NCBI GenBank assembly: GCA_041485465.1
Contig: JBGPJO010000005.1
Span: 1-53,348 of the forward strand
Length of the DNA: 53,348 bases
Source: Minisyncoccia bacterium
Lineage (GTDB): Bacteria > Patescibacteriota > Minisyncoccia > Phycocordibacterales > JAKFXT01
Reading direction: 5' to 3'
Positions 20,668 through 47,503 of this stretch are shown here, piece after piece. Under the pieces are notes generated by a model that saw nothing but the letters and a program-made list of their open reading frames with translations, was not told where the DNA came from and ran no database searches. Made by a program: the position numbers and the translations under genes. Position 1 is the stretch's first letter. The number at the start of each line of letters is the position of its first letter.

Positions 20668-21468
20668 TTACAGCGGGAGATTAAATATCCTTTTTGCGTT
20701 CTGAACGACACGCGAGCCGACCCTCTCTTCGCTTTCCCCCTTAAGTTTCGCAATCTTTCTTACTGTTTCAATCACAAAAACAGGTTCATTGCGCTTCCCC
20801 CTGAAGGGTACAGGGGAGGCGTAGGGCGCGTCGGTTTCGGAAAGAATCATATCGAACGGGCATCCCCTCACCAGAGAATCATATTCCGAAGCGAACGTTA
20901 TCACTCCGGAAAATGATACTGAAAAACCGATTGCGAAATATTGATTCGCGATCTCCGGCGTTCCGGTGAAGAAATGAATGTTGCCCCATAGTTTTTCGCC
21001 GTACTTTTTCTTCTTTTCAGAGAGAATCGAGAGCATTTCTTCATGAGCATCCATTGTTCCCATTTTTGGACGGCAATGGATCATCAGGGGCTTCCCTAAA
21101 AAGACGGCAAATTCAATTTGCTTTAAAAAATTTTCTCTCTGCCGTTCTTTTTCATCAGCCGCCCCACCTTTCAAACGAAAATAATCGAGCCCGCACTCTC
21201 CTATTGCAACAACTTTTTCGTGTTTGCCGAGCTTCTCGTAATCGGAAGGATTGAAAGATGCTTTCGTATCGGTGGGATGAAGCCCGATGGTCGCCCAAAG
21301 AAAATCATGCTCTTCCGCAAGCGCGACCGCTTTTCGCGAGCTTTCAAGATGGGTGCCGACAGTGAACGCCCCGACCCCTTTTTCTTTCATTCGCGCAAGC
21401 ACCTCTTTGCGATCTACATCATAGTCCTTGTCGTGGATATGAGAATGTACGTCAAAATAGCGAATCAT
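20668..21468 (-). CDS. tatD: TatD-family metal-dependent hydrolase
   Basis: FDVHSHIHD at the N-terminus, AIGECGLDY, IHCR and LSETDAPY blocks. Confidence 0.9.
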   Translation of the reverse strand: MIRYFDVHSHIHDKDYDVDRKEVLARMKEKGVGAFTVGTHLESSRKAVALAEEHDFLWATIGLHPTDTKASFNPSDYEKLGKHEKVVAIGECGLDYFRLKGGAADEKERQRENFLKQIEFAVFLGKPLMIHCRPKMGTMDAHEEMLSILSEKKKKYGEKLWGNIHFFTGTPEIANQYFAIGFSVSFSGVITFASEYDSLVRGCPFDMILSETDAPYASPVPFRGKRNEPVFVIETVRKIAKLKGESEERVGSRVVQNAKRIFNLPL

Positions 21469-22913
21469 CAGTCTTTGCGGGGGAAAAGATTTTCCGGTTT
21501 TTTGTTTGCAATAATTGCATCCGTAATTTTCTTACTTGTTTCTGGCATAAACGGCACCAACAAATAGGAAATATGGTATAGGTTCTTGACGAGATCAGAA
21601 ATGATTCTTTTTCCCTCTTCTGGATCATCTTTCACAACACTAAATGGTTTCTTGTGGTCTATTTCTGAATCAACTTTGCGAATCTCACGAAAAACATGGT
21701 CTGATACCTGATCAATTCGATAGCTTTTAAATCCTTCTGTATATTCTTTCTGTAGTTCAGGCGCTGTTAAATCTTGAACTTTCGTCGACAGATGTGTTTG
21801 TGCTAATTGCATAATGCGAGCGACAAGATTACCGAGCCCGTCTACAAGATCCCCACCATATACAGCCCTGAATCGCCCAATGGTTAGGTCTGTGTCATTA
21901 AATGGATGAGTGTGCTGAGCTAAAAAATGACGCACAGTCTCTGGCCCATACTCTTTAATTAAATCGTTTGGGTCAACAACGTTCCCGATTGATTTTGACA
22001 TTTTTTCTCCCCCAATCGTGACATAGCCGTGAATGAATACCTTTGATGGCAATCGAATGCCTGCTGAAAGAAGAATCGCCGGCCAGTAAATCGTATGAAA
22101 ACGATTTACGCCCTTGCCTATGACGTGGACGCGTTCATCACCTTCTTGCCAATAGTTGGTAAATTTTTCAGAATTTTCAGCGTAACCGAGTGCGGTAATA
22201 TAGTTTGAAAGTGCGTCAAACCACACATAGATCATCTGGCTCTCATCTCCCGGCACCGGAATTCCCCAGCCATGCGCCCTTTCTTTTGATCGTGAGATGC
22301 TAAAATCTTCAAGCCCTCCTTTAATGAAAGCGAGTGTTTCGTTTTTTCTGATTTCGGGAATTATCTGAAGCTCGCCTGATACGATCACCTTTTCAATCTG
22401 GTCTTTATAATTCGAAAGTTTGAAAAAATAATTCTCTTCCTCAATTTCTTCAAGCTTCACGCCGAGATGCTCCGGGCATTCTCCACTGACAAGAATTTTT
22501 TCGGTTTTGAATTCTTCGCAACCGACACAGTAAAAACCTTTATACTTTTTTTTGTATATATCTTCTTTTTTGCATGAGTTCCAAAGTTTTTCTACCCCTG
22601 CTATATGCCGCCGATCAGTACTTGTCCGTATGAAATCGTCGTTTGAAATAGTAAGATCCCGAAGAAGTGACCTGAAATTTTCAGCGTTTTTATTGACGTA
22701 GTCGGCTACCGGCTCTCCGGCCGCTTCCGCCGCCCTGACATTTTTAAGAGCATTGTCATCGGTACCGCTCAAGAAAAAAACATCTTCATTAAGAAGTCTC
22801 TTGTATCGGGCGATGATATCAGCCTGTACAAATTCAAGTGCGTGACCTAGGTGAGGACGCGCATTTACATATGGAATAGAGGTACTAATGAAAAAAGTTT
22901 TCTTTTCTCTCAT
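21468..22913 (-). CDS. metG: Methionyl-tRNA synthetase (short form, no C-terminal tRNA-binding domain)
   Basis: Class I HLGH motif (PHLGHALE), a CxxC knuckle (YCVGCEEF) and KMSKS (GEKMSKSIGN). Confidence 0.93.
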   Translation of the reverse strand: MREKKTFFISTSIPYVNARPHLGHALEFVQADIIARYKRLLNEDVFFLSGTDDNALKNVRAAEAAGEPVADYVNKNAENFRSLLRDLTISNDDFIRTSTDRRHIAGVEKLWNSCKKEDIYKKKYKGFYCVGCEEFKTEKILVSGECPEHLGVKLEEIEEENYFFKLSNYKDQIEKVIVSGELQIIPEIRKNETLAFIKGGLEDFSISRSKERAHGWGIPVPGDESQMIYVWFDALSNYITALGYAENSEKFTNYWQEGDERVHVIGKGVNRFHTIYWPAILLSAGIRLPSKVFIHGYVTIGGEKMSKSIGNVVDPNDLIKEYGPETVRHFLAQHTHPFNDTDLTIGRFRAVYGGDLVDGLGNLVARIMQLAQTHLSTKVQDLTAPELQKEYTEGFKSYRIDQVSDHVFREIRKVDSEIDHKKPFSVVKDDPEEGKRIISDLVKNLYHISYLLVPFMPETSKKITDAIIANKKPENLFPRKD

Positions 22914-22926
22914 AGGGTGCGGGATT

Positions 22927-24012
22927 TTAGAGGAACTCCGGTTCTTTTCCTTGGAGTTTCGCCTTGTTTACATCGTCGATGTATTCTTTAAGGGCGCCGG
23001 CAATCGGAACCGAGAGAATGATGCCCAAGAAACCGGCGACTTTCGCGCCGACGATCAATCCGATAATGACGAGAAGCGGAGGAACCCCAACCACCTTCCG
23101 AACAACGAGCGGATAAATCAGATGACTTTCAAATTGCTGAACAATGAGATAAAGACCAACCGTTAAAAAGCCGAGTGATACGCCGCCCGTGCCGAAAGCA
23201 ACGATGACCGCGGGAATCGCGGCGAGAATCGGCCCAAAAACCGGAATGAGCTCGAAAAGCGCAATAAGGGGAGCAAGAAAAAGCGCGTAGGGCACTCCTA
23301 AAATCACAAGACCAAGATAGGTCAAAACGCCAACAATCAGTCCGAGAAGAAGCTGTCCTTGCATCCAGAGGCCAATTTTAATCTGGGAGCGCTTCCAGAG
23401 TGATAAAACATACTTTTGATGCCGCAAAGGGGTGACGACCTGCAAAAAATCATCAACACCGGTTTCTTGGACGGCAAAATAAAATGAAAGAACGACAATC
23501 AAAATAAAGCCAAAAACACCGCCGAAAAGAGTGCTTGTTGTTTTGAAAATGCCACCCGAAGCATCGGTTGCGAACGAACGGAAATTCTCAAAAACATCCT
23601 TGAGCGGAATAAAATCGCTGAATTGAGAAAAATTTCCCGGAGCAAAACTTTCAATGCTTGTCTTTTCAATAACCGCAAGCCTGTCGGGAAGATTATTTAA
23701 AAAGTTAATTGTCTCATCAAGAAGGGGCGGCACGAGAAAATAGAACGTTCCAAAAAAGACGGTCGCAATGATGAGATACATGATCAGAACCGCGGCAGGA
23801 CGCGCTATTCGCCATTTTTTGAGGCGTATAATACCGGGTTCGATTGCCGAGGCAATGACGATCGCCGTGAGAATGATCAGAACAAGATCGCGAACATAAA
23901 AAATGAGTGCGGTAAGAAGAACAAGGAGAATCACCCTAAGGATTGTGCCGGTTGTAATTTGAATTGTCGCCCCTTCGCCTTTCATGCTTCGCATGATAGC
24001 AGAGCGTCCCAA
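22927..24012 (-). CDS. AI-2E family transporter (UPF0118/PerM-like permease)
   Basis: 361 aa with about 8 TM spans and a conserved C-terminal region (LIPVFGPILAAIPAVIVA...SHLIYPLVV). Confidence 0.85.
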   Translation of the reverse strand: MGRSAIMRSMKGEGATIQITTGTILRVILLVLLTALIFYVRDLVLIILTAIVIASAIEPGIIRLKKWRIARPAAVLIMYLIIATVFFGTFYFLVPPLLDETINFLNNLPDRLAVIEKTSIESFAPGNFSQFSDFIPLKDVFENFRSFATDASGGIFKTTSTLFGGVFGFILIVVLSFYFAVQETGVDDFLQVVTPLRHQKYVLSLWKRSQIKIGLWMQGQLLLGLIVGVLTYLGLVILGVPYALFLAPLIALFELIPVFGPILAAIPAVIVAFGTGGVSLGFLTVGLYLIVQQFESHLIYPLVVRKVVGVPPLLVIIGLIVGAKVAGFLGIILSVPIAGALKEYIDDVNKAKLQGKEPEFL

Positions 24013-24035
24013 AAAAAAGAAGCTCTGCCTCGCTT

Positions 24036-25349
24036 TTAGAGAATCGCCGCTGCTATCCGCTTTGCGATTTGATCAACGGCCACCCGGTCCTGTTTTCCCG
24101 TGTCACGGTCACGAAGAGTCACGGTATCTTCTTCAAGAGTTCGAAAATCAACTGTCACGCAATACGGCGTACCGATTTCATCCTGTCTTCGGTAGCGTTT
24201 GCCGATATTGCCATTGTCATCAAACATCACTGTCGGAACTTTTTCGGCAATAAGCGTATAGATGGCGCGAGCTTTCGAGACAAGCTCCGGTTTATTTTTA
24301 AGAAGCGGAAACACGGCCGCTTTTACCGGCGCCACCTTCGGTGAGAGTTTGAGAAACACCCGCTTCTCCCCTTCACCTCCCATTTCATCTTCGCTATAAG
24401 CAGACAGGAGAACGGCAAGTATCGTTCTCTCAAGGCCGAATGACGGCTCTATAACATGTGGTATAAAACGCTCTTTGGCCTCCTCATCATAGTACGAAAG
24501 ATCAACACCGGAGGCCGAGGCGTGATTCTTCAAATCATAGTCGGTGCGATAGGCAAGCCCATAGAGCTCTTTTTTGCCAAAGGGAAAATCAAATTCAAAA
24601 TCGACAGTGCGTTTTGAGTAATGGGCGCGGTCCTTTGGTAGAACTTCAAGCTCGTGTACTTTGTCTCGATTAATCCCAACAAGATCAACCCATCGCCACA
24701 TATCTTTTCTCCAGTACTCAAACCATTTCTCCCATTCCGCTTCTTTCACAAAATATTCGAATTCCATCAAATCAAATTCACGCAACCGAAACAAAAAATC
24801 ACGTGGCGCGATCTCATTCCGGAACGCCTTGCCGATCTGGGCAATGCCGAACGGAATCCTCGGGTGGAAAGAGTCGAGGATATTTTTAAAATTAACAAAA
24901 ATACCTTGGGCGGTTTCTCCGCGCAAATACGAAGTTGATTTGTCTTCTTCAATAGCACCGAGAGAAACCGGGAAAAGCAGGTTGAATCGCTTTGTTTCGG
25001 AAAGTTTTCCGCCGCATTCGGGGCATTTTGAACTATCAGAGAGAAGGTCGGCGCGAAAACGTTTCTTGCACTTCGCGCACTCAACGAGTGGGTCGGAAAA
25101 GGTCGAAGTATGGCCGGATGCTTCCCAGACTTTACCGCTCATGATGATCGCGGCATCGAGTCCGTACATATCTTCCCGCTCTTCGACGAACATCCGCCAC
25201 CATAGATTCTTAATATTGTTCTTGAGCGCCACCCCTAACGGCCCATAATCCCACGTACCGGCAAGCCCACCGTAAATTTCCGATCCTTGAAATATAAAAC
25301 CGCGACGTTTGGCAAGTGCGGTTATTTTTTCAAGAAGAGACTCCTCCAT
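24036..25349 (-). CDS. glyQS: Glycyl-tRNA synthetase (alpha2 dimeric type)
   Basis: RGFIFQGSEIYGGLAGTWDYGPLG N-terminus, class II motifs (FRNEIAPRDFLFRLREFDLMEFEYF) and an anticodon-binding C-terminus. Confidence 0.93.
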   Translation of the reverse strand: MEESLLEKITALAKRRGFIFQGSEIYGGLAGTWDYGPLGVALKNNIKNLWWRMFVEEREDMYGLDAAIIMSGKVWEASGHTSTFSDPLVECAKCKKRFRADLLSDSSKCPECGGKLSETKRFNLLFPVSLGAIEEDKSTSYLRGETAQGIFVNFKNILDSFHPRIPFGIAQIGKAFRNEIAPRDFLFRLREFDLMEFEYFVKEAEWEKWFEYWRKDMWRWVDLVGINRDKVHELEVLPKDRAHYSKRTVDFEFDFPFGKKELYGLAYRTDYDLKNHASASGVDLSYYDEEAKERFIPHVIEPSFGLERTILAVLLSAYSEDEMGGEGEKRVFLKLSPKVAPVKAAVFPLLKNKPELVSKARAIYTLIAEKVPTVMFDDNGNIGKRYRRQDEIGTPYCVTVDFRTLEEDTVTLRDRDTGKQDRVAVDQIAKRIAAAIL

Positions 25350-25355
25350 AAACGC

Positions 25356-27260
25356 CTACTTTACCACAATATCGTCTCCAAGCTTAGCCGAAGAATCAGA
25401 AGTAAGACGAGTGCTAAGAGCTTCCTTAGCAAAAGAAATATTTGTATTCGTAAAATGATCGGTGGCGGAAAGTGAGGTACCACTTACGACTGAAGGAGCC
25501 ACCCCAACCTGGCTAATAGAGGGGGTAAGACCAATTTGAAATGCGGCCTGTCGCGGAGCACTCTCAAAACCGGTACCGGCTTTGACTGCGCCCGCGTTCC
25601 AGATCACTTGCCCGCCAATCTGACTGAATGATATTAATTCTCCGGGTGCAGTAGCAATGAAACGAACGTAGGAGGGCAAGGGTGCCGTGACGACAACATC
25701 ACTTAGATCGTTTGAACCGTTGGTAAGTGTCATAATCACCGTGTATGTCGTCTCGTGTTCCGCCTTCGGCGGCACGCTACCGGTATTCACAAATGGTCCG
25801 GAGTAATAAAGAAGTCTCGTGTTAAGCGCGACATCACTTTCAATTTGAAGGGTTCTCTTTTGCGATGCCACGATCTCTTCCGGCACTTGATTGCTCTCAC
25901 TCCTCTGTCCTTTGACGCTTGCCGAAAGAAGAATCTGTGGATTCCGTAGTGAGGCAATGCCCGATGAGAGAGATTTTGAAGCAAGCGAAAAACTCACCGT
26001 ACCGTTTCCCCCGGGGAGAATGGTCGCAAGCTGATCCGTCGTACTCTTATCCCAAATAACGGTATTATCAATTGAACGATAGAACCCTTTTTCCGCGGCA
26101 ACGGAGGTTTTTTCAAGCGCATCGCCTTGAAGCGAGACGGCAATCTCGACGTTCGATACCGGTACCAAAAGATTATTGGTGTACGTGACATCAACCCGAA
26201 CCGGTTTTCCGCTCTTTGTCGAAATCGTTTCGTCGCTTAAGCCATTTAAAGCAATGGAGAGCCCTATGAATGATTTTTTGATTGAAAGTTCCTGCATCAC
26301 GTCCGCAAAGGGGGTGGCGATCACCTTGTTGTTCTTATCGCTGCCGATCCCCGTCTCAAAATGGAACACTTTGGTATCAAGATCTTCTCCGGTAAGTGTC
26401 CCCCGAATAGTAAACGTCCGCGAGCTTCCGGGCTTTACGTCGCCAAGCCGCCAGATACTATTTTCGGCAAAAGGTGACGGGTCTGATGACTTGAAACTGA
26501 AGCCAGACGGATAACTCGCTTTAAGCAAAACATTCTGCACGACATCGGCGGAATTCGAATTGATCGTCACCTGAAGAGAGAGGTCCTGGCCGCTGTTTGC
26601 TTCTTTTGGAGCATCAATGACAACGGAGAGCGGCGCGGAATTAATGACCACTTGATAATCGGATTCCTTGTAGAAGATGGCATTTGAACCGGGGACGCGA
26701 TACTCGACGGTAATTTTAATGTCTTTGACCGAGTGCTCCTCTCCGAAAAGCACGGCGGAAACTGTTTTTTTAACGGTTTGTCCCGAAGCGATGTCTCCAA
26801 GACCCTGGCGAATCCGCGGAAGTTGCTGTGAAATGTCGCTTGCATCTCTCGTCCCATCCGGATACTCAACGAGTAAATCGGCAACTTCAAGAGGCGTCGC
26901 ATTCCTGTTCGCAACTCCGATTTCAAGCGAAAGCGTATCGCCTCCGTTTATCGATACCGGGCCGTTTATCGCAATATCTATATTTTGCGAGGAGACAACA
27001 TTGGCGCCACCGAAATAAAGATACCCCGCATAGGAGAGCGCAACGACAAAAAAAACTGTCGAGGAAATAAAAAAGATTTTAAGTGTAGAGCGTCTTTTCG
27101 GCGCTTCACTTTTCTTTTGCGGGGCATGTCCCCAATCGGTTTTAACCAACCCCTGAGAAGAACGGAGCCGATGCTCGCGGATACCTTTTAGGGTTTCACT
27201 TCCCCGCGAATACATTTTTCGCTTTAAATTTTCAATTCGTGTCGAATCATTCTCTGCCAT
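25356..27260 (-). CDS. Hypothetical membrane-anchored protein with repeated beta-sandwich-like modules
   Basis: 634 aa: a basic cytoplasmic N-terminus, one TM span (LKIFFISSTVFFVVALSYAGYLYF), then a beta-rich ectodomain. Confidence 0.8.
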   Translation of the reverse strand: MAENDSTRIENLKRKMYSRGSETLKGIREHRLRSSQGLVKTDWGHAPQKKSEAPKRRSTLKIFFISSTVFFVVALSYAGYLYFGGANVVSSQNIDIAINGPVSINGGDTLSLEIGVANRNATPLEVADLLVEYPDGTRDASDISQQLPRIRQGLGDIASGQTVKKTVSAVLFGEEHSVKDIKITVEYRVPGSNAIFYKESDYQVVINSAPLSVVIDAPKEANSGQDLSLQVTINSNSADVVQNVLLKASYPSGFSFKSSDPSPFAENSIWRLGDVKPGSSRTFTIRGTLTGEDLDTKVFHFETGIGSDKNNKVIATPFADVMQELSIKKSFIGLSIALNGLSDETISTKSGKPVRVDVTYTNNLLVPVSNVEIAVSLQGDALEKTSVAAEKGFYRSIDNTVIWDKSTTDQLATILPGGNGTVSFSLASKSLSSGIASLRNPQILLSASVKGQRSESNQVPEEIVASQKRTLQIESDVALNTRLLYYSGPFVNTGSVPPKAEHETTYTVIMTLTNGSNDLSDVVVTAPLPSYVRFIATAPGELISFSQIGGQVIWNAGAVKAGTGFESAPRQAAFQIGLTPSISQVGVAPSVVSGTSLSATDHFTNTNISFAKEALSTRLTSDSSAKLGDDIVVK

Positions 27261-27284
27261 AGAGGTCTTTCCATTTTAGCACGA

Positions 27285-27878
27285 TCAGAGGTGGCTCTCC
27301 GAAAGCGCCGCGTTTATATCGGTGAGCAATTTTTTTTCAAGTGGCGCAATACCCTCAAGAATTTCTTTACTTATTTCCGAATCCCTAAAGAATACCCGGT
27401 ACTCGGGAGCTGGAGAAAAATAACCAAGCGCAAAGAGCATCCGGGCGACAGTGACAAGCTCAAGGTGCTTCAAGAAAGATTCCCCCGGCTTTTCTTCCGC
27501 GAGGAAACGGAGCGTATTTTCAAGGATCAAAAAAAGAAGCCTGTTCGCTCCCTCGCCCTGAACGAGACGTGAAACAAGATCAAGCAGATGTTTGATAAGT
27601 GACATCTTCTCCACGTCACCTTTGAAATCAACAAAAAAATGGTTGGCATTTTTCGCCCCGATAACTCTCCAGTATTCCTTTCCCCGAACAAGCGCTACTT
27701 CGCTTCGAGAAAAAACCTGGAGACTGTAACGAAGTTTTGATTTCTCTCCGCGGATATTCTGGGCAAGAGCCCTGACCAGCCCGAAATCGCGCGTAAACAA
27801 ATTAAACAAGCGGTTTCCTTCACTTAGATTACGGGCAGAAAGGCTAAACGCGTCCGTTTCGTATGTTTCGTAAACCAT
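27285..27878 (-). CDS. recO: DNA repair protein RecO (short form)
   Basis: 197 aa. The N-terminal OB-like region (TDAFSLSARNLSEGNRLFNLFTRDFGLVRALAQNIRGEKSKLR) matches my recollection of RecO. I see no zinc finger. Confidence 0.6.
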   Translation of the reverse strand: MVYETYETDAFSLSARNLSEGNRLFNLFTRDFGLVRALAQNIRGEKSKLRYSLQVFSRSEVALVRGKEYWRVIGAKNANHFFVDFKGDVEKMSLIKHLLDLVSRLVQGEGANRLLFLILENTLRFLAEEKPGESFLKHLELVTVARMLFALGYFSPAPEYRVFFRDSEISKEILEGIAPLEKKLLTDINAALSESHL

Positions 27879-30800
27879 TTAAATTTTCTCTATCAAAACC
27901 GATGGTTTAGGCGTCTCCCCCTCCTTAAAAATCACTTTCTCGGCATTTACCGTATGAGCGATTTCTTCTCTGAATTGCTCAATTTTCGCTGATTCGAAAA
28001 CATGGATGGTTACCGTGATTCGATCACCCGGCTTAAGAGAAAGATTTTTTCTTTTCTCCTGAATGTCCCGAATAACATCGCGGGCAAGCCCCTCACGGCG
28101 GAGCTCATCGGTCATCGACGTATCGAGCGCAACTTCTTCCTTCCCCTTTGCGGCAATTACTTCTTTAACGTTCAACTCTTCGGCGATGAGAAACGTCAGT
28201 TCCTTATGCTTTAAGATATTTTTATTTGAAAGGGAAATTGACTTCAAGGGTTGCCGGACTTTGATCCCCGCTTTTGCCCTGGCTTCAAGCCCGAGCGAGA
28301 CGACGCGACGAGTTTCCGCCATAAGAGAGAGTAACGGAGCGTCAATGGTGCCCCCTCTAGGCCAGTCCTCAAGATGAACGCTTTCCTGATCCCCCTCTTT
28401 TTTAAGTTTTAGGAAAAGATGCTCAGCGGTGAAGGGCATAAAGGGTGCGATCAGTTTGGAAAATTCACGGAGAACAAAGGAGGTCGTCATCCGAGCAAAA
28501 TTTTTATCAGCCTCATTATCTCCCTTGAAACGGTCCCGTGATCGGCGCAGGTACCACGTCGAAAGATCATCGACAAAAGAAAGAATCGGCCGTGTCGCCT
28601 TGTCAATCTCATAGCGCTCCATCGCTTCCGTCATTTCACTTAAAAGCTCATTGAAGCGCGAGAGAATCCACCGATCAAGCACATTAGGGCTTTTTTCGGG
28701 CTTCGCCACACTTTCTTTTTTATAGAGCTCATAAAAGGAAAAAATATTTTCAAGGCGGGCGATGATTTTCTTTCCCGCCTCATCAACGCCGCGCTCGGAA
28801 AAATTAAGATCTTCGCTTCGGACAACCGGAGACGAGAGGAGATAATACCGAAGCGCGTCCGCGCCGTAACGATTAACAACATCGATCGGATCGGGATAAT
28901 TTTTAAGCCGCTTCGACATTTTTTGTCCGTCTTCCCCAAGAATAAGGCCGTTTACTATTACGCGCTTGTAGGGGCTTTTTCCAAAGAGCGCAACACCAAG
29001 AACAAGCATCGAATAAAACCAGCCTCGCGTCTGGTCGAGTCCTTCGGCAATAAAATCAGCGGGGTATCCTAGCCCGTGAGGTGGATCAAATTGTTTTTTA
29101 TCGAACGGATAGTGAAATTGTCCGTAGGGCATTGAGCCCGATTCAAACCAGCAATCAAAGACTTCCCGAACACGCTTAAAAGCACCGCCACAATCGCAGG
29201 GAAAAACTACCGAGTCTATATAGGGGCGGTGAACGTCAAACTCGTATTCTTGATTATGAGGTAAAGGTTTAAAATGAAGCTCTTTGACTTCAGCGGTTCT
29301 TGGAAAATCATCTGCCTTCCCCCGTAAGATGAGTGCTTCTTTAGGGGTGAGACCTTTTGCGACAGCGAGAAGCATCCACCCCGGATATTCGTGGGTGATA
29401 ATCAGTATCTTTTTGTCAGAATATTTTTTTTCAATGTCATAGAGAAATTCTCCTACTCTTTGCTTCAAATCAGAGAGTGTCTCACCCCCTTCCGGGCGCT
29501 TAGTGAAATACTCGTCCCAAGACGAAAAAAAGGCGTGGTACTGAGCAACTGGTTTTCCGTCAAATACACCGGCATGGATTTCAAAAAGTCGATTGTCGAT
29601 AAAGATACGATCATCCGGGATGTTGAGCTCAGCGGCAACGCGCTTTGCGGTCTCTCGAGTGCGTTTAAAAGGCGAGACGAAGATATAATCTATTTTTTCT
29701 TTTTTAAGTTCGCCCGCGGCTCTGTCGACATCTTTTTCCCCTTTCGGCGTAAGCGAAATCGCATCATTTTCACTCGAACTTACCGTGTTTTTGATATTAT
29801 GTTCAGCTTCACCGTGCCGCATCAGAAAATAGGTATTGCCGGATGTTTTTGTTTGTTTTAAAAGCTCTTCAAAAGATCCGATGACCATTCGCGATTCACA
29901 TTGGTCGCACTGCCACACGGGCAAGGGTGCCCCCCAGAAACGAGAGCGGGAAATCGCCCAATCGGGCGCGGTTTCGAGGATGTTTTCAAACCGTCCCCTT
30001 CCCAAATGCTCCGGAGTCCATTTTATTTTTTTATTTTCCCTGATCAGTTTGTCTTTTATTTTTGGGACATTTAAAAACCATGAAATAGCGGCGTAATTCA
30101 AAAGCGGCGTATCGCACCTCCAACAAGAGGGATACGGGTGAGTGATTTTTTCTTTGGCAAAAAGAAGGTCGCGGGAAGCGAGATTTTTTATGATCAGAAC
30201 ATCGCTTGATTGATGATCTTCTTTCGGTTTGGCCTGAAGGCCGGAAAAATCGGAGATTTCTTTTTTGAAAGCGCCATCAATACCGACATGGTGAACAATC
30301 GGGATTTTTTCTTTGATCGCAAGTTCCAGATCGTCAGCGCCGAATGCTGGAGCGATGTGGACAACCCCCGTCCCCGCTTCAAGGTTTACAAAACTCGCTC
30401 CGTATATTTTCCAGGCATTCCCTTTGTTCTGAATTTCTTTTTCTTCGTAGTAATCAAAGGGCGGAGTGTAAGATTTGCTCACCAAATCCTCACCGTGTAT
30501 CTCTTCAATAATTTTAAATCCTTCTTCAAGAAGAGAAAATTTTTCTTTGGCAATAATAAACTGTGTTCCGTCTTTTTCCGCTTTGACATAGACAATATCG
30601 GGGTTCACCGCTACCGCCATATTTCCAGGGAGCGTCCATGGCGTTGTCGTCCAGACAAGAAGATATGTACCCGGTTCGTCGATAAGCCCGAATTTCACCG
30701 TGACTGCTAAATCAGAAATATCTTTATAGCCCTGAGCAACTTCAAAATTCGAAAGAGTCGTTTCGCACCGTGGACACAGATGCATGCTCTTAAAGCCCTG

Positions 30801-31340
30801 ATAGATAAGGTCTTTTTCATAGAGCGACTTAAAAGCAAACCAGACGCTTTCAGTGTACGAGGGGTCCATCGTTGAGTAGGCGTTTTCCATGTCGACAAAA
30901 CGCCCCATGCGCGGGATGATCTTTTTCCAGTCATCGGTATAACGAAGAACTTCTTTCCTCGCCGCCTGGTTGAATTTTTCAATGCCGAGCGCTTCTATAT
31001 CTTTTTTTATCTTGAGGCCGAGTTCTTTTTCTACGACATTTTCAACGGGAAGACCGTGGCAGTCCCACCCCCATCGCCGAAAAACCTTTTTGCCACGCAT
31101 CGTCTGATAACGCGGAATTGCATCTTTAATCGTCCCCGCAAGAATATGTCCATAGTGAGGCAATCCCGTCGCAAATGGCGGACCATCATAAAAAACGAAT
31201 TCTTCTTTGCCTTTTGCTTCGGCTTTCTCAAAGATCTTATTTTCCCCCCAAAAGGCTAAAATCTCTTCTTCACGAAGCGCGATCTGGCTTTTTTTTGTTG
31301 TTTGTTTCTCTTTCTCGATTCCACTCACGATGTTTTTCAT
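27879..31340 (-). CDS. ileS: Isoleucyl-tRNA synthetase (type 2) carrying a nested histidine-phosphatase domain
   Basis: 1153 aa with HYGH (PHYGHILAG), CP1 editing (TTTPWTLPGN), WAISRSRFWGAPLPVW, VFDCWFESGSMPY and KMSKR (GQKMSKRLKNYPDP). Confidence 0.95.
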   Translation of the reverse strand: MKNIVSGIEKEKQTTKKSQIALREEEILAFWGENKIFEKAEAKGKEEFVFYDGPPFATGLPHYGHILAGTIKDAIPRYQTMRGKKVFRRWGWDCHGLPVENVVEKELGLKIKKDIEALGIEKFNQAARKEVLRYTDDWKKIIPRMGRFVDMENAYSTMDPSYTESVWFAFKSLYEKDLIYQGFKSMHLCPRCETTLSNFEVAQGYKDISDLAVTVKFGLIDEPGTYLLVWTTTPWTLPGNMAVAVNPDIVYVKAEKDGTQFIIAKEKFSLLEEGFKIIEEIHGEDLVSKSYTPPFDYYEEKEIQNKGNAWKIYGASFVNLEAGTGVVHIAPAFGADDLELAIKEKIPIVHHVGIDGAFKKEISDFSGLQAKPKEDHQSSDVLIIKNLASRDLLFAKEKITHPYPSCWRCDTPLLNYAAISWFLNVPKIKDKLIRENKKIKWTPEHLGRGRFENILETAPDWAISRSRFWGAPLPVWQCDQCESRMVIGSFEELLKQTKTSGNTYFLMRHGEAEHNIKNTVSSSENDAISLTPKGEKDVDRAAGELKKEKIDYIFVSPFKRTRETAKRVAAELNIPDDRIFIDNRLFEIHAGVFDGKPVAQYHAFFSSWDEYFTKRPEGGETLSDLKQRVGEFLYDIEKKYSDKKILIITHEYPGWMLLAVAKGLTPKEALILRGKADDFPRTAEVKELHFKPLPHNQEYEFDVHRPYIDSVVFPCDCGGAFKRVREVFDCWFESGSMPYGQFHYPFDKKQFDPPHGLGYPADFIAEGLDQTRGWFYSMLVLGVALFGKSPYKRVIVNGLILGEDGQKMSKRLKNYPDPIDVVNRYGADALRYYLLSSPVVRSEDLNFSERGVDEAGKKIIARLENIFSFYELYKKESVAKPEKSPNVLDRWILSRFNELLSEMTEAMERYEIDKATRPILSFVDDLSTWYLRRSRDRFKGDNEADKNFARMTTSFVLREFSKLIAPFMPFTAEHLFLKLKKEGDQESVHLEDWPRGGTIDAPLLSLMAETRRVVSLGLEARAKAGIKVRQPLKSISLSNKNILKHKELTFLIAEELNVKEVIAAKGKEEVALDTSMTDELRREGLARDVIRDIQEKRKNLSLKPGDRITVTIHVFESAKIEQFREEIAHTVNAEKVIFKEGETPKPSVLIEKI
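29256..29837 (-). other. Histidine-phosphatase (PGAM/His_Phos_1-like) domain inserted in IleRS (about aa 502-695)
   Basis: The ordered motifs are FLMRHGEAEHN, FVSPFKRTRETA, LFEIHAGVFDG and ILIITHEYPG. They are flanked by the Zn knuckles WQCDQCES and FPCDCGG. Confidence 0.7.
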
Positions 31341-31355
31341 ACTAGCACTTTAGGT

Positions 31356-31389
31356 AAAGAAAAAAAGAAGCCGCCTCTAGGGCGGCTTC
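31356..31389 (-). terminator. Intrinsic terminator about 15 nt upstream of the ileS start codon
   Basis: The minus strand reads GAAGCCGCC ctaga GGCGGCTTC TTTTTTTCTTT. Confidence 0.7.
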
Positions 31390-31393
31390 AATG

Positions 31394-31633
31394 CTACCAG
31401 TGAAGACTGATCTCCATTCTTTCGGGCTCGCAGCTCCGTGCCTGTTGCAAGCATAGGGTAATTTCTCCATCCGATCGGACCAAGAAACTTGCCCCGGGGA
31501 CATTCCCGTACGCCGCCTTGATAGTACAAGGAAAGGTCGGAAGATTTTGAGCCGCGCGATCTTCCATGAGACGGCGGATCTGATCGGTTGCCAGAGGAAC
31601 ATCGTCAATCTTAACGTGGGTTGATTCAGTCAT
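31394..31633 (-). CDS. Small hypothetical protein (79 aa)
   Basis: The ATG at 31633 is preceded by GGGGG. A TATAAT box lies at 31676-31671 (minus strand) and a terminator follows directly. I recognise no family. Confidence 0.55.
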   Translation of the reverse strand: MTESTHVKIDDVPLATDQIRRLMEDRAAQNLPTFPCTIKAAYGNVPGASFLVRSDGEITLCLQQARSCEPERMEISLHW

Positions 31634-31683
31634 AGGGACCCCCACTGTACATGAGAATATCTAAAGGATAATTATACACCAAA

Positions 31684-33366
31684 TTACATCTTCTCGGGAA
31701 CCTTTATACCCAGGGCGGAAAGCCCATTTTCAATCACGGTAGCAGTCGCCTGAGTGAGCGCGAGGCGATAGGGTGACTCTGTAGAATCATCAATAATTCT
31801 ATTGTAGGCATAATAGGCGTTAAACGCTCCGGCAAGTTCAAGAAGGTAACTGACGAGAAGCTGGGGCGCGTAATTTTTACCCGATCGCTCCATGATTTCC
31901 GGCAACCGGCAAAGAAGTCTCTCAAGCGTCGACACCAGAGATGGAGCGTTATTCGCTTTAGAAATTTTCCCGACTTCTTTTCCCTTTTCAAGAACAGAAC
32001 GCGCCCGAACGGCAGTGTACTGAAGGTAGGGGCCTGAATCCCCTTCAAAAGAAAGTGACTTGTCGAAATCAAAAACAATATCTTTCCCGATCGATTGCCT
32101 AAGGATTGAGAATTTTATGGCGCCAATCGCGATTTCCTCTATTATTTTTTCCCGCTCATTTTTACCCATAGATTCATTCTTCATTTTTGAACGGATAACA
32201 CCGCTGACATCGGCAATGAGCGTCTCCGCGGTGATAACATCCCCGGTGCGCGAAGACATTTTCCCTGAGGGCAGGCGAAGTATACCGTGCGAAATGTGTA
32301 CAGTTTTCTCGGCAAGAGAAGAATTAATAATGGAGAGGGCTTTTAGTAATACTCTGAAATAATCTTTAATCTCGTTTGCGGTAACGACAACAGAAATATC
32401 GGATGGGTATGTTTTCTCCTTTAGAAACGCCAGGCCGAGCTCTTTTGCCTCGTACGTCGGTAACCCTTCTTTAGTAATAAAAACCCGGGTATGAAGGGAA
32501 TGCTTCTCGCCCTTAAAGATTATAGCTCCTTCACTTGCTTCAAAAACATTCGGTATGTTTTTTCTGACCAGTTCCTCGCCAATTTTTCCCGTTTCACTTT
32601 CGAAAAAAGAATAATCAAATTTTGTGCCAAGTTTTCGGTATATGGTCTCAAAATAATCAAGACTGGTTTTTTTACCGGAGTCGTAGAGCTTATTTATTAC
32701 CGCATCGGAGCGGTCATAGATCTTTTTATTTATCTCCTGTATTTCTCTTTTTGCGGTTTCATCTTCCTCGTAACTTTTCGCCCCCCCAACGTATCCTAGC
32801 GCTGAAGCTTGAACATTTTCTATTGTTTTTAGCCCGTCATTTTTTACCTTCCACAAGACTTTGGCAACATGAAGCCCCACATCGCCCTGGTAGTTTACCC
32901 GCTGTACCCGAGCGCCGTTCCATTCATAGAGACGCGCTATCGATTCACCAATGGCATTCGGCATAAGATGCCCGATATGAAATTCTTTGAACGGGTTCGG
33001 GTCTGTGTATTCAACCATCACTTTTTTGCCTTTGTAAATTTCAGTCTTCCCGAATTCCGGGTCTTTAATGATTTGACTGATGCTTTTTGTGAAAAAATCC
33101 CGAGAGAGAAAAATATTCACAAAACCGGGACCGGCAACTTCAATCCGATCTATTTCTATTACTTTTTGAGATCGTAATGTATCAGCAATCTTCTCCGCCA
33201 TATCGCGCGGATCCTTGCCGAGCTCTTTTGAGACAACAAGCGCTACGTTCGCCGAAAAATCTCCGTGATCGGGATCATCCGGATGTTCTATGGAAAAACT
33301 CACCTTCAATATACCAAGGTCTTTGAGAGTTTTATGTATTGCACTTTCTATGATTTTTCGAATCAC
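31684..33366 (-). CDS. argS: Arginyl-tRNA synthetase
   Basis: HIGH (EFHIGHLMPNAIG), a DALR-type anticodon-binding C-terminus and a protein ending in ...PEKM. The start is uncertain. The GTG at 33366 (VIRKIIESAI...) is chosen because the track's TTG at 33477 would overlap thyA. Confidence 0.88.
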   Translation of the reverse strand: MIRKIIESAIHKTLKDLGILKVSFSIEHPDDPDHGDFSANVALVVSKELGKDPRDMAEKIADTLRSQKVIEIDRIEVAGPGFVNIFLSRDFFTKSISQIIKDPEFGKTEIYKGKKVMVEYTDPNPFKEFHIGHLMPNAIGESIARLYEWNGARVQRVNYQGDVGLHVAKVLWKVKNDGLKTIENVQASALGYVGGAKSYEEDETAKREIQEINKKIYDRSDAVINKLYDSGKKTSLDYFETIYRKLGTKFDYSFFESETGKIGEELVRKNIPNVFEASEGAIIFKGEKHSLHTRVFITKEGLPTYEAKELGLAFLKEKTYPSDISVVVTANEIKDYFRVLLKALSIINSSLAEKTVHISHGILRLPSGKMSSRTGDVITAETLIADVSGVIRSKMKNESMGKNEREKIIEEIAIGAIKFSILRQSIGKDIVFDFDKSLSFEGDSGPYLQYTAVRARSVLEKGKEVGKISKANNAPSLVSTLERLLCRLPEIMERSGKNYAPQLLVSYLLELAGAFNAYYAYNRIIDDSTESPYRLALTQATATVIENGLSALGIKVPEKM

Positions 33367-33409
33367 GATAAAAGTATTGTAGCAAAAAGAGCCTCCCTCG
33401 CGCTCTTCC

Positions 33410-33437
33410 TTGACCACGTTTTCAGCCGTGCTAATCT
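33410..33437 (+). promoter_or_regulatory. Sigma70-like promoter for thyA-folA (TTGACC-16-TAATCT)
   Basis: TTGACC at 33410-33415, a 16-nt spacer, then TAATCT at 33432-33437, about 30 nt upstream of the thyA ATG. Confidence 0.4.
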
Positions 33438-33469
33438 CCAAAAAGACACGTTCACTGAAAGGTAAAGCG

Positions 33470-34351
33470 ATGTACAAACCTTATGAAGATCGAGTGCCGG
33501 ATTCTCAATATGAGGATCGCCTGCGCACTATTTTAAAGTTCGGCATGCGCGCTGCGGAAACTCCGCAAGGGGTGGCCGCACTCACCTGTTTTGGCACCCT
33601 CTCACCGATGGTGTTTGATGTCTCAAACGGAGCTCCGGTCATCACGAGCCGGAAGATCGGCTTTTGGCGGAAACCCATAGCCGAGATAACCGCCTTCATC
33701 AACGGAGCGCGTACCAACAAAGAACTCAAAGAGTTCGGCTGTGATTTTTGGGAGGAATACGAAACTTCTGGGAAATGTGAGCGAAAGGGGTTGGCGCGAG
33801 GCGATCTAGGGCCGGGTTCCTATGGAGCCGTGTTCCATGATTTCCCAATGCCTGACGGGGGCGGATTCAATCAATTTGCTCATGTTATCGACCAACTCAG
33901 AAAGTATCCGTGGGCACGGACGCACCTCATTACTCCTTGGGCTCCTTTCTATATCGGCCGCGGCGGTTTCCAGAAAGCCGTCGTGTCCCCCTGTCATGGG
34001 TGGCTCCACTTTCGTGTTATCGATGGCGAGCTCATGCTGAGGATGGATCAGCGCTCGGCAGATATGCCGATTGGCGTACCTTCAAACATGATCCAATACT
34101 TTGCTCTCCTCCTCATGGTGGCGCAAGTTGTCGGCATCAAACCCTACCGCTACATCCATAGCTTTGCCGATGCCCATATCTACGAAAACCAAGTCAAGAG
34201 TGTGGAGGAGCTACTCAACAGAGAGCCTCGGGTGTTCCCGACAATAAAACTGGACCCGGGAGTAAAAAATCTTTTTGACTTCCGCCCACAGCATTTCGAG
34301 CTTTCCGATTACAATCCACACCCGGCAATGAAAATTTCATACGTGCCGTGA
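33470..34351 (+). CDS. thyA: Thymidylate synthase (ThyA type, divergent)
   Basis: GDLGPGSYG, the SPCHGW catalytic Cys, DQRSADMPIGVPSNMIQY and ADAHIY blocks. The ATG at 33470 follows AAAGG. Confidence 0.9.
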   Translation: MYKPYEDRVPDSQYEDRLRTILKFGMRAAETPQGVAALTCFGTLSPMVFDVSNGAPVITSRKIGFWRKPIAEITAFINGARTNKELKEFGCDFWEEYETSGKCERKGLARGDLGPGSYGAVFHDFPMPDGGGFNQFAHVIDQLRKYPWARTHLITPWAPFYIGRGGFQKAVVSPCHGWLHFRVIDGELMLRMDQRSADMPIGVPSNMIQYFALLLMVAQVVGIKPYRYIHSFADAHIYENQVKSVEELLNREPRVFPTIKLDPGVKNLFDFRPQHFELSDYNPHPAMKISYVP

Positions 34352-34363
34352 CGGGAGGACACG

Positions 34364-34897
34364 ATGCAAATTGGAATCGTCGTAGCAATGTCTAGGAATC
34401 GTGTCATCGGCAAAGAAGGAACTCTGCCGTGGCGACTTAAAGCCGATCTTGCCCGTTTTACCCTAATCACTACTGGTCATCCGGTCATCATGGGCAGAAA
34501 AACTTTCGAGTCGATCCTTACTCGGAACAAAAGGCCCCTGCCGAAACGGCCAAACATTATCATCACGAGAATGAGAGACTTCCGAGCAGGGGGTGACAGT
34601 CACGTGACTCACTCTCTTGACGAAGCCCTCTCAAAAGCAAGGCTGTACAGAGATCCGATGGCTTTTGTCATAGGCGGAGCTGAAATATTCAGTCTCGCCC
34701 TGCCAAGAGCGGATCGAATCTTCCTCACAATCGTTGAAACCGAATGCGAGGGAGACGTGTTCTTTCCTAAATACGACCTGAGCTCCTGGTCGGTTGAGCG
34801 GAGCGAAACCCTAAACCCGGACCACGAAAACGAGTTTGCTCAAACATTCACGGTCTATCGACGACCCAAAGAACTTGACCTTCTGGCCGCATCCTAA
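34364..34897 (+). CDS. folA: Dihydrofolate reductase
   Basis: IVVAMSRNRVIGKEGTLPWRLKADLARF...VIMGRKTFESI...FVIGGAEIF. Confidence 0.93.
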   Translation: MQIGIVVAMSRNRVIGKEGTLPWRLKADLARFTLITTGHPVIMGRKTFESILTRNKRPLPKRPNIIITRMRDFRAGGDSHVTHSLDEALSKARLYRDPMAFVIGGAEIFSLALPRADRIFLTIVETECEGDVFFPKYDLSSWSVERSETLNPDHENEFAQTFTVYRRPKELDLLAAS

Positions 34898-40813: not shown

Positions 40814-41218
40814 TTATAGTGACCCCTTTTTAAATAACCGCTCCTGAAGTTCCTGTGAAAAATACCAAAGAAATCCGAGCTGAATTGTGGGAGTAAGACC
40901 AACAGAAAGGAGCGGGATGATAGGCATATACGCATTGTAGGCCCACCTGCCGGTTGAGAGCGCGTACCATTCAATCAAAACAGCAATGATAATACCGATG
41001 AGTATCATTAGCCCCTTCCTTTTTCTAAAAAAAGAAATGTAGAAAAATAAAAACGACATTAGTATGATAATCGCCGCATCCCAAAGCGATGCCCTGAAAA
41101 GAATAAATTCCGTAATCGGCGCTCCTTTGTAATTGCTATACAGATACGAATGGAGATTTTCCCAAATAAAATTGAGAGCCAGAGCAAGCAGAAATATAAA
41201 AGTTAATCGTCTTGTCAT
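40814..41218 (-). CDS. Hypothetical integral membrane protein
   Basis: 134 aa with about 4 TM spans. It overlaps the purD stop by 4 nt. Confidence 0.7.
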   Translation of the reverse strand: MTRRLTFIFLLALALNFIWENLHSYLYSNYKGAPITEFILFRASLWDAAIIILMSFLFFYISFFRKRKGLMILIGIIIAVLIEWYALSTGRWAYNAYMPIIPLLSVGLTPTIQLGFLWYFSQELQERLFKKGSL

Positions 41219-42471
41219 ACTTTCCCTATATCTTTCCTATAATACACGTTCTTAAAATTTATTTTCTTGACTTCTTTGTATGCTTTTTTAAGCGCTCCCT
41301 TTAAATTTTTATCGCGGGAAGTAATCCCCAATACCCGTCCGCCGTTCGTAATGATCTTTCTGCCCTTCTTCTCTGTGCTTGCGTGAAATACAATCGCCCC
41401 CTTTTGGACGGAAGATGAGTTTTTTATCTCAAGGCCACTTTTATAAAATCCGGGGTAACCTTTTGATGCCAAGACAACGCAGCATGCGGAATCCTTTGAC
41501 CAGCGAATCGGAATCTTTGAAAGCTTGCCGTTTACGCAGCTTAAAAAAATGTCGGTTAGATCGGATTCAAGAAGGAGCATATAGACTTGCGTTTCAGGAT
41601 CACCGAATCGCGCGTTGAATTCGATAACTTTAGGACCTTCTTTCGTCAATATAATGCCAGGATACATGACTCCAGTGAATGGCGAGCCGCGTTTCCTTAA
41701 TCCGCGCATGGCAGGAAGGATTATTTTTTCCATAATTAAAGAAAGTTCTTTCTTCGAAACAGAGGGGACAGGAGAAATTGCTCCCATGCCTCCCGTGTTT
41801 GGTCCTTTGTTTTTATCGAAAACTCGTTTGTAATCTTTTGATGGAGGAAAAAGGACGGCAGTTTTGCCATCGCAAAATGCGTGAATCGAGATCTCTTTAC
41901 CCTTCAAATATTCTTCAATCACAACCCTCCTTCCCGCTTTTCCAAATATTTTCTTCAAAAAAATATTTCTAAGAACTTTTGCGGCTTCTTTCCTCTGTCC
42001 GACAATAGCCACCCCTTTCCCTAAGGCAAGGCCGTCAGCCTTTATGACAAGAGGAAATTTTTGCCTGTTTGTATACGCAAGAGCTTTTTTAAAATCAGAA
42101 AAAGCAGTATACGAAGCTGTCGGCATTCTTTCCTCTAGCATAAAACGTTTGGCAAAAATTTTTGACCACTCGATTTTTGCCGCCGCTTTCGTGGGTCCAA
42201 AGACCTTTATTTTGCGAGCCTTAAGATAATCGACCAATCCATGAGCCAAAAGATCATCCGGACCGATAACCACTAAATTAATTTTCTTCTTTTTTATAAA
42301 AGAAAGAAGCCTTGGTCTATTCGCCCTAAAAGCAGCGGAAATATTTTCTCCGATCTCGGCCGTACCCGCATTCCCCGGTGCAAAAAAGAGTTTTTTAACT
42401 TTAGACGACTGTCTTAATTTCCAACCGATAGCATGCTCGCGCCCGCCGCCTCCCATAACGAGAACATTCAT
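41215..42471 (-). CDS. purD: Phosphoribosylamine-glycine ligase
   Basis: MNVLVMGGGGREHAIGWKL N-terminus and ATP-grasp blocks (VIKADGLALGKGV, FNARFGDPETQ). Confidence 0.93.
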   Translation of the reverse strand: MNVLVMGGGGREHAIGWKLRQSSKVKKLFFAPGNAGTAEIGENISAAFRANRPRLLSFIKKKKINLVVIGPDDLLAHGLVDYLKARKIKVFGPTKAAAKIEWSKIFAKRFMLEERMPTASYTAFSDFKKALAYTNRQKFPLVIKADGLALGKGVAIVGQRKEAAKVLRNIFLKKIFGKAGRRVVIEEYLKGKEISIHAFCDGKTAVLFPPSKDYKRVFDKNKGPNTGGMGAISPVPSVSKKELSLIMEKIILPAMRGLRKRGSPFTGVMYPGIILTKEGPKVIEFNARFGDPETQVYMLLLESDLTDIFLSCVNGKLSKIPIRWSKDSACCVVLASKGYPGFYKSGLEIKNSSSVQKGAIVFHASTEKKGRKIITNGGRVLGITSRDKNLKGALKKAYKEVKKINFKNVYYRKDIGKV

Positions 42472-44040: not shown

Positions 44041-44205
44041 GTGCACCTCTTCTTCCTTGAGTTTGTCAAAGACTGTTCTGCCCCGATACTTACACAAAAC
44101 AAAAAATAATCAAAACTCCGGGAATGAATTTGCCATATCTCTCTTTTTATAGCAATCTATTGACCAGATTTGTTATCGCATTGATTTAATCGACTAGGAG
44201 GACTC

Positions 44206-44852: not shown

Positions 44853-44880
44853 AAAAAAATATTATTGAGTAAAATCTCTG

Positions 44881-44953: not shown

Positions 44954-44970
44954 ATCAATCGCTTTATATT

Positions 44971-45528: not shown

Positions 45529-45582
45529 GAAATAATTATAGCAAAAGAAAAGGAGAGGCTTGATGAAAATCACAGCTTCTCC

Positions 45583-47433: not shown

Positions 47434-47470
47434 GTCAAAAGATTATGCAGAAAAAAAGAAAAAACTTCAA

Positions 47471-47500: not shown

Positions 47501-47503
47501 ATT

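Follow-up and report, generated by a model that had tools for sequence, protein, structure and literature searches.

Isoleucyl-tRNA synthetase (IleRS) of a Minisyncoccia bacterium contains an intact branch-1 histidine-phosphatase domain, nested between the two zinc knuckles of its CP3 subdomain. The gene, ileS, lies on contig JBGPJO010000005.1 (assembly GCA_041485465.1), of which a stretch of 53,348 nucleotides (nt), hereafter the window, was analysed. It encodes 1153 amino acids (aa) in a single, uninterrupted frame; residues ~498-700 constitute the phosphatase with its linkers, and the rest of the protein is a normal type-2 IleRS. Few enzymes are as conserved as the aminoacyl-tRNA synthetases, and it is rare for new catalytic domains to be found within their cores. 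To judge from sequence, an essential enzyme here carries an apparently active phosphatase in its Rossmann-fold insertions, throughout a major lineage of uncultured bacteria of ultra-small size. Sister lineages encode the phosphatase as a free protein beside ileS, and thereby provide a natural control that makes the question of crosstalk between the two enzymes directly testable. With modest confidence, we favour the view that the domain is an autonomous phosphatase (or divergent mutase) with a small phosphorylated metabolite or nucleotide as its substrate, linked to IleRS mainly for co-expression and co-localisation and adding no new step to aminoacylation.

A preliminary description of this DNA had stated that no such synthetase was known, and full-text literature searches agree, since they returned no paper on a histidine phosphatase in or beside IleRS. 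A 2026 preprint covers ~96,000 IleRS domain architectures, and its main text speaks of no phosphatase and does not name Patescibacteria. NCBIfam has a GNAT-containing IleRS model (NF040702) and none for an IleRS-phosphatase architecture. Public databases already hold the sequences, with automatic Pfam annotation; the main new result is the split form, and the arrangement gains interest from its breadth and from the natural nested and split pairs. Public names are inconsistent. A free 197-aa phosphatase is called 'isoleucyl-tRNA synthetase' (Joint Genome Institute, JGI) and a partial IleRS 'histidine phosphatase family protein, partial' (NCBI), with proteins P0311 and P0001 among the examples, and chimeras of full length appear as 'class I tRNA ligase family protein' or 'hypothetical protein'.

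A histidine phosphatase within a type-2 synthetase

The host enzyme is readily identified on both sides of the insert. Pfam returned tRNA-synt_1 in two stretches (E=6e-132), together with Anticodon_1 and DUF5915, and the NCBIfam ileS equivalog model TIGR00392 matched in two stretches flanking the insert with 876.9 bits, above its cutoff of 621.4. The top PDB sequence matches were the human, P. megaterium (IleRS2), yeast and T. thermophilus enzymes. When aligned to the solved structure of human cytoplasmic IleRS, residues 20-494 correspond to human residues 12-489 and residues 702-1070 to 498-889, and similar two-part alignments were obtained with the other three enzymes. An AlphaFold2 (AF2) model of the full-length protein had a predicted local distance difference test (pLDDT) score of 92.8 and a predicted template modelling (pTM) score of 0.86. 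Its template modelling (TM) scores were 0.74/0.83 against IleRS2 (8c8u), compared with 0.55-0.60/0.67-0.76 against type-1 IleRS, and the overall structure is thus predicted to be that of a type-2 (eukaryote-like) IleRS. The catalytic motifs HYGH and KMSKR and the CP1 editing motif TTTPWTLPGN are present, and H62, G64, K807, K810, T231-T233, W235 and L237-N240 are invariant in the 120 full-length homologues described below. Because the HIGH, KMSKS and CP1 editing motifs are intact, the synthetase would be expected to charge tRNA-Ile as usual, and the polypeptide would be a two-enzyme protein.

The nested domain was recognised independently by family models and by structure prediction. The preliminary description had placed a complete, competent-looking histidine-phosphatase domain between the zinc knuckles, and its feature at 29256-29837 corresponds to aa 502-695, inside the insert as delimited here (Table 1); translation found each motif that it had quoted where it had been placed. 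The proposed family, His_Phos_1 (PF00300), matched the whole protein at aa 505-669 with E=2.3e-31 and 109.4 bits, against a gathering cutoff of 21.7, and the insert scanned alone scored 114.2 bits, which assigns it to branch 1. An AF2 model of the insert alone, built from 29 insert sequences, reached pLDDT 91.2 and pTM 0.89. Its best Foldseek match was the phosphatase PhoE (1h2e; probability 1.00, TM 0.70/0.76, root-mean-square deviation 2.3 Å). PspA phosphoserine phosphatase (4ij5/4ij6) was also matched, and CobC and the cofactor-dependent phosphoglycerate mutases (dPGM) ranked slightly lower. The insert is thus predicted to fold autonomously as a PhoE/PspA-like alpha/beta domain, a point that the earlier description had proposed to check by structure prediction.

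Table 1. Positions of ileS, its nested phosphatase and the flanking genes in the window
Feature	Position	Strand	Basis or remark
ileS ORF (open reading frame), type-2 IleRS with nested phosphatase	27879..31340	minus	1153 aa, uninterrupted single frame
IleRS N-terminal part, aa 1-497	29850..31340	minus	First Rossmann half, CP core, CP1 editing domain, CP2, CP2-3 linker APDWAISRSRFWG, start of CP3
HYGH, aa 62-65	31146-31157	minus	Translation
CP3 zinc knuckle 1, C478-D-Q-C481	29898..29909	minus	Translation
Nested histidine-phosphatase module with linkers, aa ~498-700	29241..29849	minus	Insert-less relatives, Pfam, structure alignment
His_Phos_1 core, aa 505-669	29334-29828	minus	PF00300
R508-H509-G510, phospho-acceptor His and first pocket Arg	29811..29819	minus	Invariant, 120/120
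R560, second pocket Arg (SPxxR motif)	29661..29663	minus	Invariant, 120/120
E587, presumed general acid	29580..29582	minus	Invariant, 120/120; Asp in adjacent/nested2 subfamily
H650, distal catalytic His	29391..29393	minus	Invariant, 120/120
IleRS C-terminal part, aa 701-1153	27879..29240	minus	HRPYID, second Rossmann half, anticodon-binding and C-terminal domains
CP3 zinc knuckle 2, C715-D-C717	29190..29198	minus	Translation
KMSKR, aa 807-811	28908-28922	minus	Translation
argS, upstream neighbour	31684..33477	minus	In relatives the stand-alone phosphatase sits between argS and ileS
recO, downstream neighbour	27285..27878	minus	Part of the conserved argS-(phosphatase)-ileS-recO-DUF11-class II synthetase block

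Across the 120 homologues, R508, H509, G510, S556, R560, E587, E620, R628 and H650 of the insert are invariant and N515 is kept in 117. In the same set, the insert has a mean pairwise identity of 45%, compared with 62-70% in the catalytic body of IleRS and 42% in its C-terminal domain. The Arg-His pair, the second Arg and the distal His were also retained in ~150 divergent cluster representatives wherever the region was covered, bar scattered single substitutions. Since the catalytic residues are invariant despite the low identity of the insert, this pattern is the signature expected of an active enzyme under purifying selection. In the catalytic cycle that we propose, His509 would accept the phosphoryl group of a phosphomonoester, with Arg508, Arg560 and His650 binding the phosphate and Glu587 serving as general acid, and the phospho-enzyme would be hydrolysed at the end. 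The same conservation argues against a purely structural role, in which the domain would mediate dimerisation, or offer a tRNA-binding surface in place of a lost IleRS element, with catalysis irrelevant. Many members of the histidine-phosphatase family dimerise, and the IleRS body is short (948 aa once the insert is left out, with DUF5915 matched in its second half only), but with catalytic residues invariant at 45% insert identity and the core kept in the divergent representatives we consider such a role extremely unlikely.

The insertion site in CP3

Subdomains are named here after PMC7191050 and PMC7955072. The insert falls within CP3, the subdomain that bears a zinc motif in T. thermophilus IleRS (PMC7191050). 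About 205 residues occupy the place of a linker that has ~8-10 residues in ordinary type-2 IleRS (~8 in the alignment to such enzymes), so that the insertion proposed earlier could be delimited by comparison. All four knuckle cysteines are kept together in 97 of the 120 homologues, and the remainder have mostly lost all four jointly. Upstream, the CP2-3 linker of the window enzyme is 458-APDWAISRSRFWG-470, with 453-ARDWNVSRNRYWG-465 as its yeast counterpart, and this linker contributes to the pocket for tRNA-CCA and reveromycin (PMC7955072). The length of the insert varies narrowly, from 205 to 216 aa in all 120 homologues, and motifs at both linkers are conserved (G488-S489, and P694-H695-N696...E700.D702). 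The junction blocks have pLDDT 88-96 in the full-length model, and modelling of the C-terminal linker was poor when the insert was folded by itself.

Authenticity and distribution of the nested form

The alternative to a genuine fusion would be two genes joined by a chimeric assembly or by a hidden frameshift. The ORF is continuous, the GC content of the insert (0.43-0.48) is the same as that of its flanks, and no repeats were found at the insert junctions. All of the 120 best full-length matches (55-66% identical, 1142-1325 aa) carry PF00300 together with IleRS domains; among the names of their sources are Yonath-, Kaiser-, Lloyd- and Pacebacteria, Minisyncoccia and Paceibacterota. When 1.84 billion representatives were searched exhaustively, 129 clusters were found at E<=1e-30, and 126 of the 149 best representatives have IleRS flanks, 33-68% identical to the window enzyme. 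At least 594 GTDB species genomes contain the insert with its junction, and all of those with informative names are Patescibacteria. The insertion is therefore found in related Patescibacteria, as the preliminary description had suggested looking for, and is clade-wide rather than peculiar to this genome. A word-indexed search with the insert only had returned 3 fragments from a frameshift-rich assembly, and it was the full-length and exhaustive searches that showed the wider spread.

Insert and host have also diverged together. Divergence of the insert correlates with that of the IleRS body at r=0.73, against r=0.75 between the N- and C-terminal halves of IleRS, and none of 500 Mantel permutations reached the observed value. 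Because the insert has diverged in step with its host as closely as one half of IleRS has with the other, the chimera is an ancient trait that a large Paceibacteria-type clade has inherited vertically. With the same junctions shared by 120 independent full-length proteins and found in at least 594 species genomes, which come from many studies, and with an insert that co-diverges with its host, a chimeric assembly or hidden frameshift is effectively refuted and can be set aside for practical purposes. Many genes are split on contigs L001 and L002 (ENA ERZ1286166), where ileS is in 3-4 pieces, SHMT in 3 and IF3 in 2, a pattern typical of frameshifts in uncorrected long reads. Despite their split genes, both contigs confirm the insert and the synteny.

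A stand-alone phosphatase beside ileS

The exhaustive search also returned proteins of ~190-210 aa that start a few residues before RHG and end past the last strand of the domain. By profile search, this stand-alone family comprises at least 639 proteins from Parcubacteria, Pacebacteria and a few Nanoarchaeota, named 'broad specificity phosphatase PhoE' or 'histidine phosphatase family protein'. On 4/4 long contigs the gene lies between argS and ileS, the distance from phosphatase stop to ileS start being 4, -4 (an overlap), 58 and 137 nt. The adjoining ileS encodes 949-966 aa without a PF00300 match, and its CP3 has both knuckles and a 7-10-residue linker exactly at the position of the window enzyme's insert. 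The surrounding block of argS, ileS, recO, a DUF11 protein and a class II synthetase is the same around the split form and in the window. Since these relatives have the phosphatase as a free protein beside an insert-less ileS, the two enzymes can be separated in nature, although their linkage persists.

A GTDB scan found a sister subfamily of the phosphatase in 173 species, and its best 80 loci were classified with hidden Markov models (HMMs). The domain abuts a whole downstream ileS in 51 of them (adjacent), is nested in IleRS in 14 (nested2), has no ileS nearby in 11 (unlinked), and is cut by contig ends in the remaining 4. The nested2 cases, of which the complete Nealsonbacteria genome CP179887.1 is an example, use exactly the same CP3 site and have a similar C-terminal linker (P-x-N...LDFHRPYID). 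Both flavours of IleRS that adjoin the phosphatase pass the ileS cutoff. A locus scan with the single stand-alone protein P0263 returned only an unrelated Alistipes locus.

Some loci have the phosphatase without its partner. At L100 (2773-7452) the order is ArgRS, phosphatase, RecO and DUF11, and ileS is gone, as Pfam confirmed; L113 has the same ORF layout, with BLAST matches to ArgRS and RecO. That the phosphatase was kept between argS and recO after ileS had left argues for an independent function. In a subclade of unlinked copies, an NTP_transferase (sugar-phosphate nucleotidylyltransferase-like) gene comes just before that of the phosphatase (L103 3768-4505, L109 3758-4492, L128 2160-2903), and its stop overlaps the phosphatase start in L103 and L128; this arrangement hints at a small-molecule pathway context for that small subclade. 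A further locus, L079, has the nested IleRS form (2414-6031) and, ~900 nt upstream on the same strand, a separate His_Phos-like ORF (818-1489; E=1e-10).

Domain trees separate the two nested types. In a neighbour-joining tree, nested domains of the window type form a pure clade with the canonical pocket residues N515 and E587, and in the adjacent, unlinked and nested2 domains N515 is replaced by Gln and E587 by Asp, and a Gly follows the distal His. In the tree of host IleRS these states interleave, and three different IleRS clades occur as partners of the nested2-like phosphatase subclade. Both the domain and the host-body trees are neighbour-joining trees without support values, with short internal branches and conflicting topologies, and for these reasons we claim no direction, insertion or fission. 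A single insertion with later fissions would account for the common site and linker and for the location of the free gene upstream; repeated insertion is the alternative. A tandem duplication, or an exchange of ileS that spared the phosphatase ORF, could for instance have produced the split. One host clade, 'X' (L086, L088, L142 and 11 further loci), is a strongly divergent IleRS on a long branch that adjoins a stand-alone phosphatase. In it SKKRYWG, NPWLDAG and FICESFPGQ replace SRxRxWG, DCWFESG and FIAEGxDQTRGWF, and the ileS model still scores 705 bits, above its cutoff; this clade may represent an in situ replacement of ileS.

Possible functions of the nested domain

An autonomous phosphatase is supported by the free and unlinked copies, by the subclade adjacent to nucleotidylyltransferase genes and by the mildly acidic charge of the insert. 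Its mean net charge is -3.4, and in the charge and pI analysis the overall charge gave no hint of an RNA-binding module. On this reading, linkage to ileS would mainly secure co-expression and co-localisation of a housekeeping phosphatase or divergent mutase.

Several points weigh against this reading. The insert scored below every NCBIfam equivalog cutoff, including those of CobC (TIGR03162, 79.2 against 162.9 bits), PspA (NF045917, 68.8 against 350), archaeal dPGM (NF038349, 72.7 against 225) and SixA (TIGR00249, 39.3 against 74.5). The insertion site is only ~27 residues downstream of the CP2-3 linker that lines the tRNA-CCA pocket (PMC7955072). Long retention in an essential enzyme, uniform length, conserved linkers and context-dependent junctions suggest a fixed geometry relative to IleRS. 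Such a geometry, indicated by the narrow length range, the linker motifs and junctions that are confident solely within the full-length model, would not be needed by a mere passenger. Adjacency in the split form could in part be a relic of fission, and would then be no independent proof of functional coupling.

Because no curated subfamily cutoff was reached, no substrate can be transferred by homology, and by these scores the insert is a generic branch-1 histidine phosphatase. The preliminary description had assigned it to a dPGM/SixA/CobC/PhoE branch. The superfamily assignment stands, and within that broad group the insert is nearer to the phosphatases PhoE, PspA and CobC than to the dPGM mutases, whose cutoffs it failed.

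The module might instead be the lineage's missing cofactor-dependent phosphoglycerate mutase (PGM), merely riding on or beside ileS. Mutases share a superfamily with the insert, one of the best NCBIfam matches is the small archaeal dPGM model (72.7 bits for the insert, and the top match for the stand-alone protein P0282), and the monomeric S. pombe PGM (1fzt) ranked third in the fold search. PGM was found missing from several shallow Parcubacteria clades by Jaffe et al. 2020, possibly through divergence (PMC7304191), which keeps the idea alive. We nevertheless regard it as unlikely, given closest fold and sequence matches that are phosphatases (PhoE, PspA, CobC) and dPGM scores far below both cutoffs, TIGR01258 giving 29 bits for the insert against 81.7 and NF038349 falling short as noted above. 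Metabolic reconstructions of CPR (candidate phyla radiation) bacteria, with their reports of missing PGM in some Parcubacteria, may be affected by the family described here.

The superfamily also includes protein phosphohistidine and phosphotyrosine phosphatases, and a SixA- or PGAM5-like protein phosphatase or regulatory sensor could be imagined that dephosphorylates IleRS or a translation factor, or couples charging to a phospho-metabolite. Beyond this precedent, the idea draws on a weak SixA match (39 bits) and on co-expression with IleRS. The SixA score is under the cutoff of 74.5, no kinase partner was seen and the proposal is purely speculative, and we judge it very unlikely.

A closer involvement with the synthetase deserves more weight, although we still find it rather unlikely. 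Here the phosphatase would act on tRNA-Ile or within the aminoacylation cycle, as a third catalytic site of the synthetase, for instance by removing a 2'/3'-phosphate, a cyclic phosphate or a toxin-added (pyro)phosphate from the CCA end, or by hydrolysing a phosphorylated by-product at the synthetic site. Chemistry of this kind at tRNA ends has precedents in the HD-domain phosphatase of the E. coli CCA-adding enzyme and in RelA/SpoT-homologue toxins that pyrophosphorylate the CCA end; we know of no histidine phosphatase that acts on RNA ends. The link to ileS is persistent, with 94 nested and 51 abutting cases among 160 sampled loci. The partner is specific, in that 126/126 representatives with synthetase flanks match IleRS at 33-68% identity, and the phosphatase adjoins ileS even where the partner IleRS belongs to a different clade. 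The geometry looks rigid, to judge from the conserved linkers and high junction pLDDT, and the CP3 site follows directly on the CP2-3 linker of the tRNA-CCA/reveromycin pocket (PMC7955072). Against this, the domain has no basic surface signal, free and unlinked copies occur, some of them beside a sugar-phosphate nucleotidylyltransferase-like gene, and an insert-less IleRS serves the sister lineages. It also seems unlikely that the phosphatase, nested or adjacent, is a dedicated partner of IleRS that acts on the acceptor end or on phosphorylated species made at, or aimed at, the synthetic site. If that were true, a class I synthetase would have a third activity that repairs or licenses its own tRNA substrate, and the nested-to-split transitions would represent different ways to keep two proteins together.

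Comparison with known systems

The fold and catalytic constellation of the insert are the same as in PhoE (YhfR) of Geobacillus stearothermophilus, a broad-specificity phosphatase (1h2e/1ebb), and in the PspA-type enzyme 4ij5. PhoE 1h2e and PspA are the best structural and PDB sequence matches, at 27% identity, but are free-standing. Closest of all, at 34-47% identity, is the stand-alone 'PhoE-like' phosphatase of Patescibacteria and DPANN (P0279, P0282; Nealsonbacteria CP179888.1), which occupies the same argS-ileS-recO block. It differs in being a separate gene with a Gln/Asp/Gly pocket and an insert-less partner IleRS, except for one branch (nested2), which is inserted at the identical CP3 site.

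The best NCBIfam match of the insert, at 82.9 bits and far under the cutoff of 326, is the bifunctional RNase H/acid phosphatase (NF005567; M. tuberculosis Rv2228c type), in which a CobC-like histidine phosphatase is fused to a nucleic-acid enzyme. That fusion is end-to-end, not nested, and has another partner enzyme; to our knowledge, the link between its RNase H and acid phosphatase activities is likewise unexplained. The CP1 editing domain of class Ia synthetases is likewise hydrolytic and nested, being joined to the Rossmann fold by two linker strands. All IleRS, ValRS and LeuRS possess CP1, which acts on mischarged tRNA, whereas the phosphatase is clade-restricted and of unrelated fold.

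The curated precedent for an unrelated catalytic domain nested in IleRS is NF040702, 'ileS_w_GNAT'. The window protein scored 305 bits against its cutoff of 1999 and had no acetyltransferase match in Pfam, and the GNAT sites differ from CP3. Two patescibacterial proteins carry GNAT and His_Phos together. In P0019 (1325 aa) the GNAT domain is inside CP1, in addition to the His_Phos insert. In P0167 (1066 aa) it is in the loop after WFESGSMPY, where the protein ends, and an IS200-like Y1 transposase domain (aa 340-461) lies in frame within CP1, again alongside His_Phos. A metagenomic representative, P0199 (1395 aa), combines the CP3 His_Phos insert with a P-loop kinase-like domain (AAA_18/AAA_33, Walker A 'GACGAGKTT') at ~740-930, in a second loop between WFESGSMPYA and PADFIAEGLDQTRGWF. 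For the latter domain, APS (adenosine 5'-phosphosulfate) kinase, shikimate kinase and Pnkp1 were each matched only at E>0.01, which leaves a generic kinase fold. P0167 and P0019 imply that patescibacterial IleRS has at least three hot spots for nested domains.

Gene neighbourhood in the window

The region 20668-33477 of the window holds four aminoacyl-tRNA synthetase genes within 12 kb on one strand, namely MetRS (21468-22913), a class II enzyme (24036-25349), IleRS and ArgRS. Interspersed among these are TatD, an AI-2E transporter, a DUF11 surface protein and RecO, and the order is also found in L002 and L086-L089. No second His_Phos gene was found within the window. The spacer between argS and ileS (31341-31683, 343 nt) contains no phosphatase relic and no Rfam family above threshold. 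It includes an 83-aa ORF without a Pfam match (31394-31645, minus strand) and, directly upstream of the ileS start, a strong terminator-like hairpin, GAAGCCGCCCTAGAGGCGGCTTC, followed by a T-run (31367-31399, minus strand).

Nucleotide biosynthesis in the window exceeds what is usually ascribed to Patescibacteria. ThyA, DHFR and a dCMP-deaminase-like gene lie in the region 33410-34897, and de novo purine genes for PurD/GARS and an AIR-synthase-related protein at 41215-42471 and 42916-44097. A 23S rRNA gene, within which the window begins, occupies positions 1-1287 on the minus strand (model positions 1-1229 of 2925), and five tRNA genes (His, Leu, Val, Arg and Ser) are found at 44880-53348.

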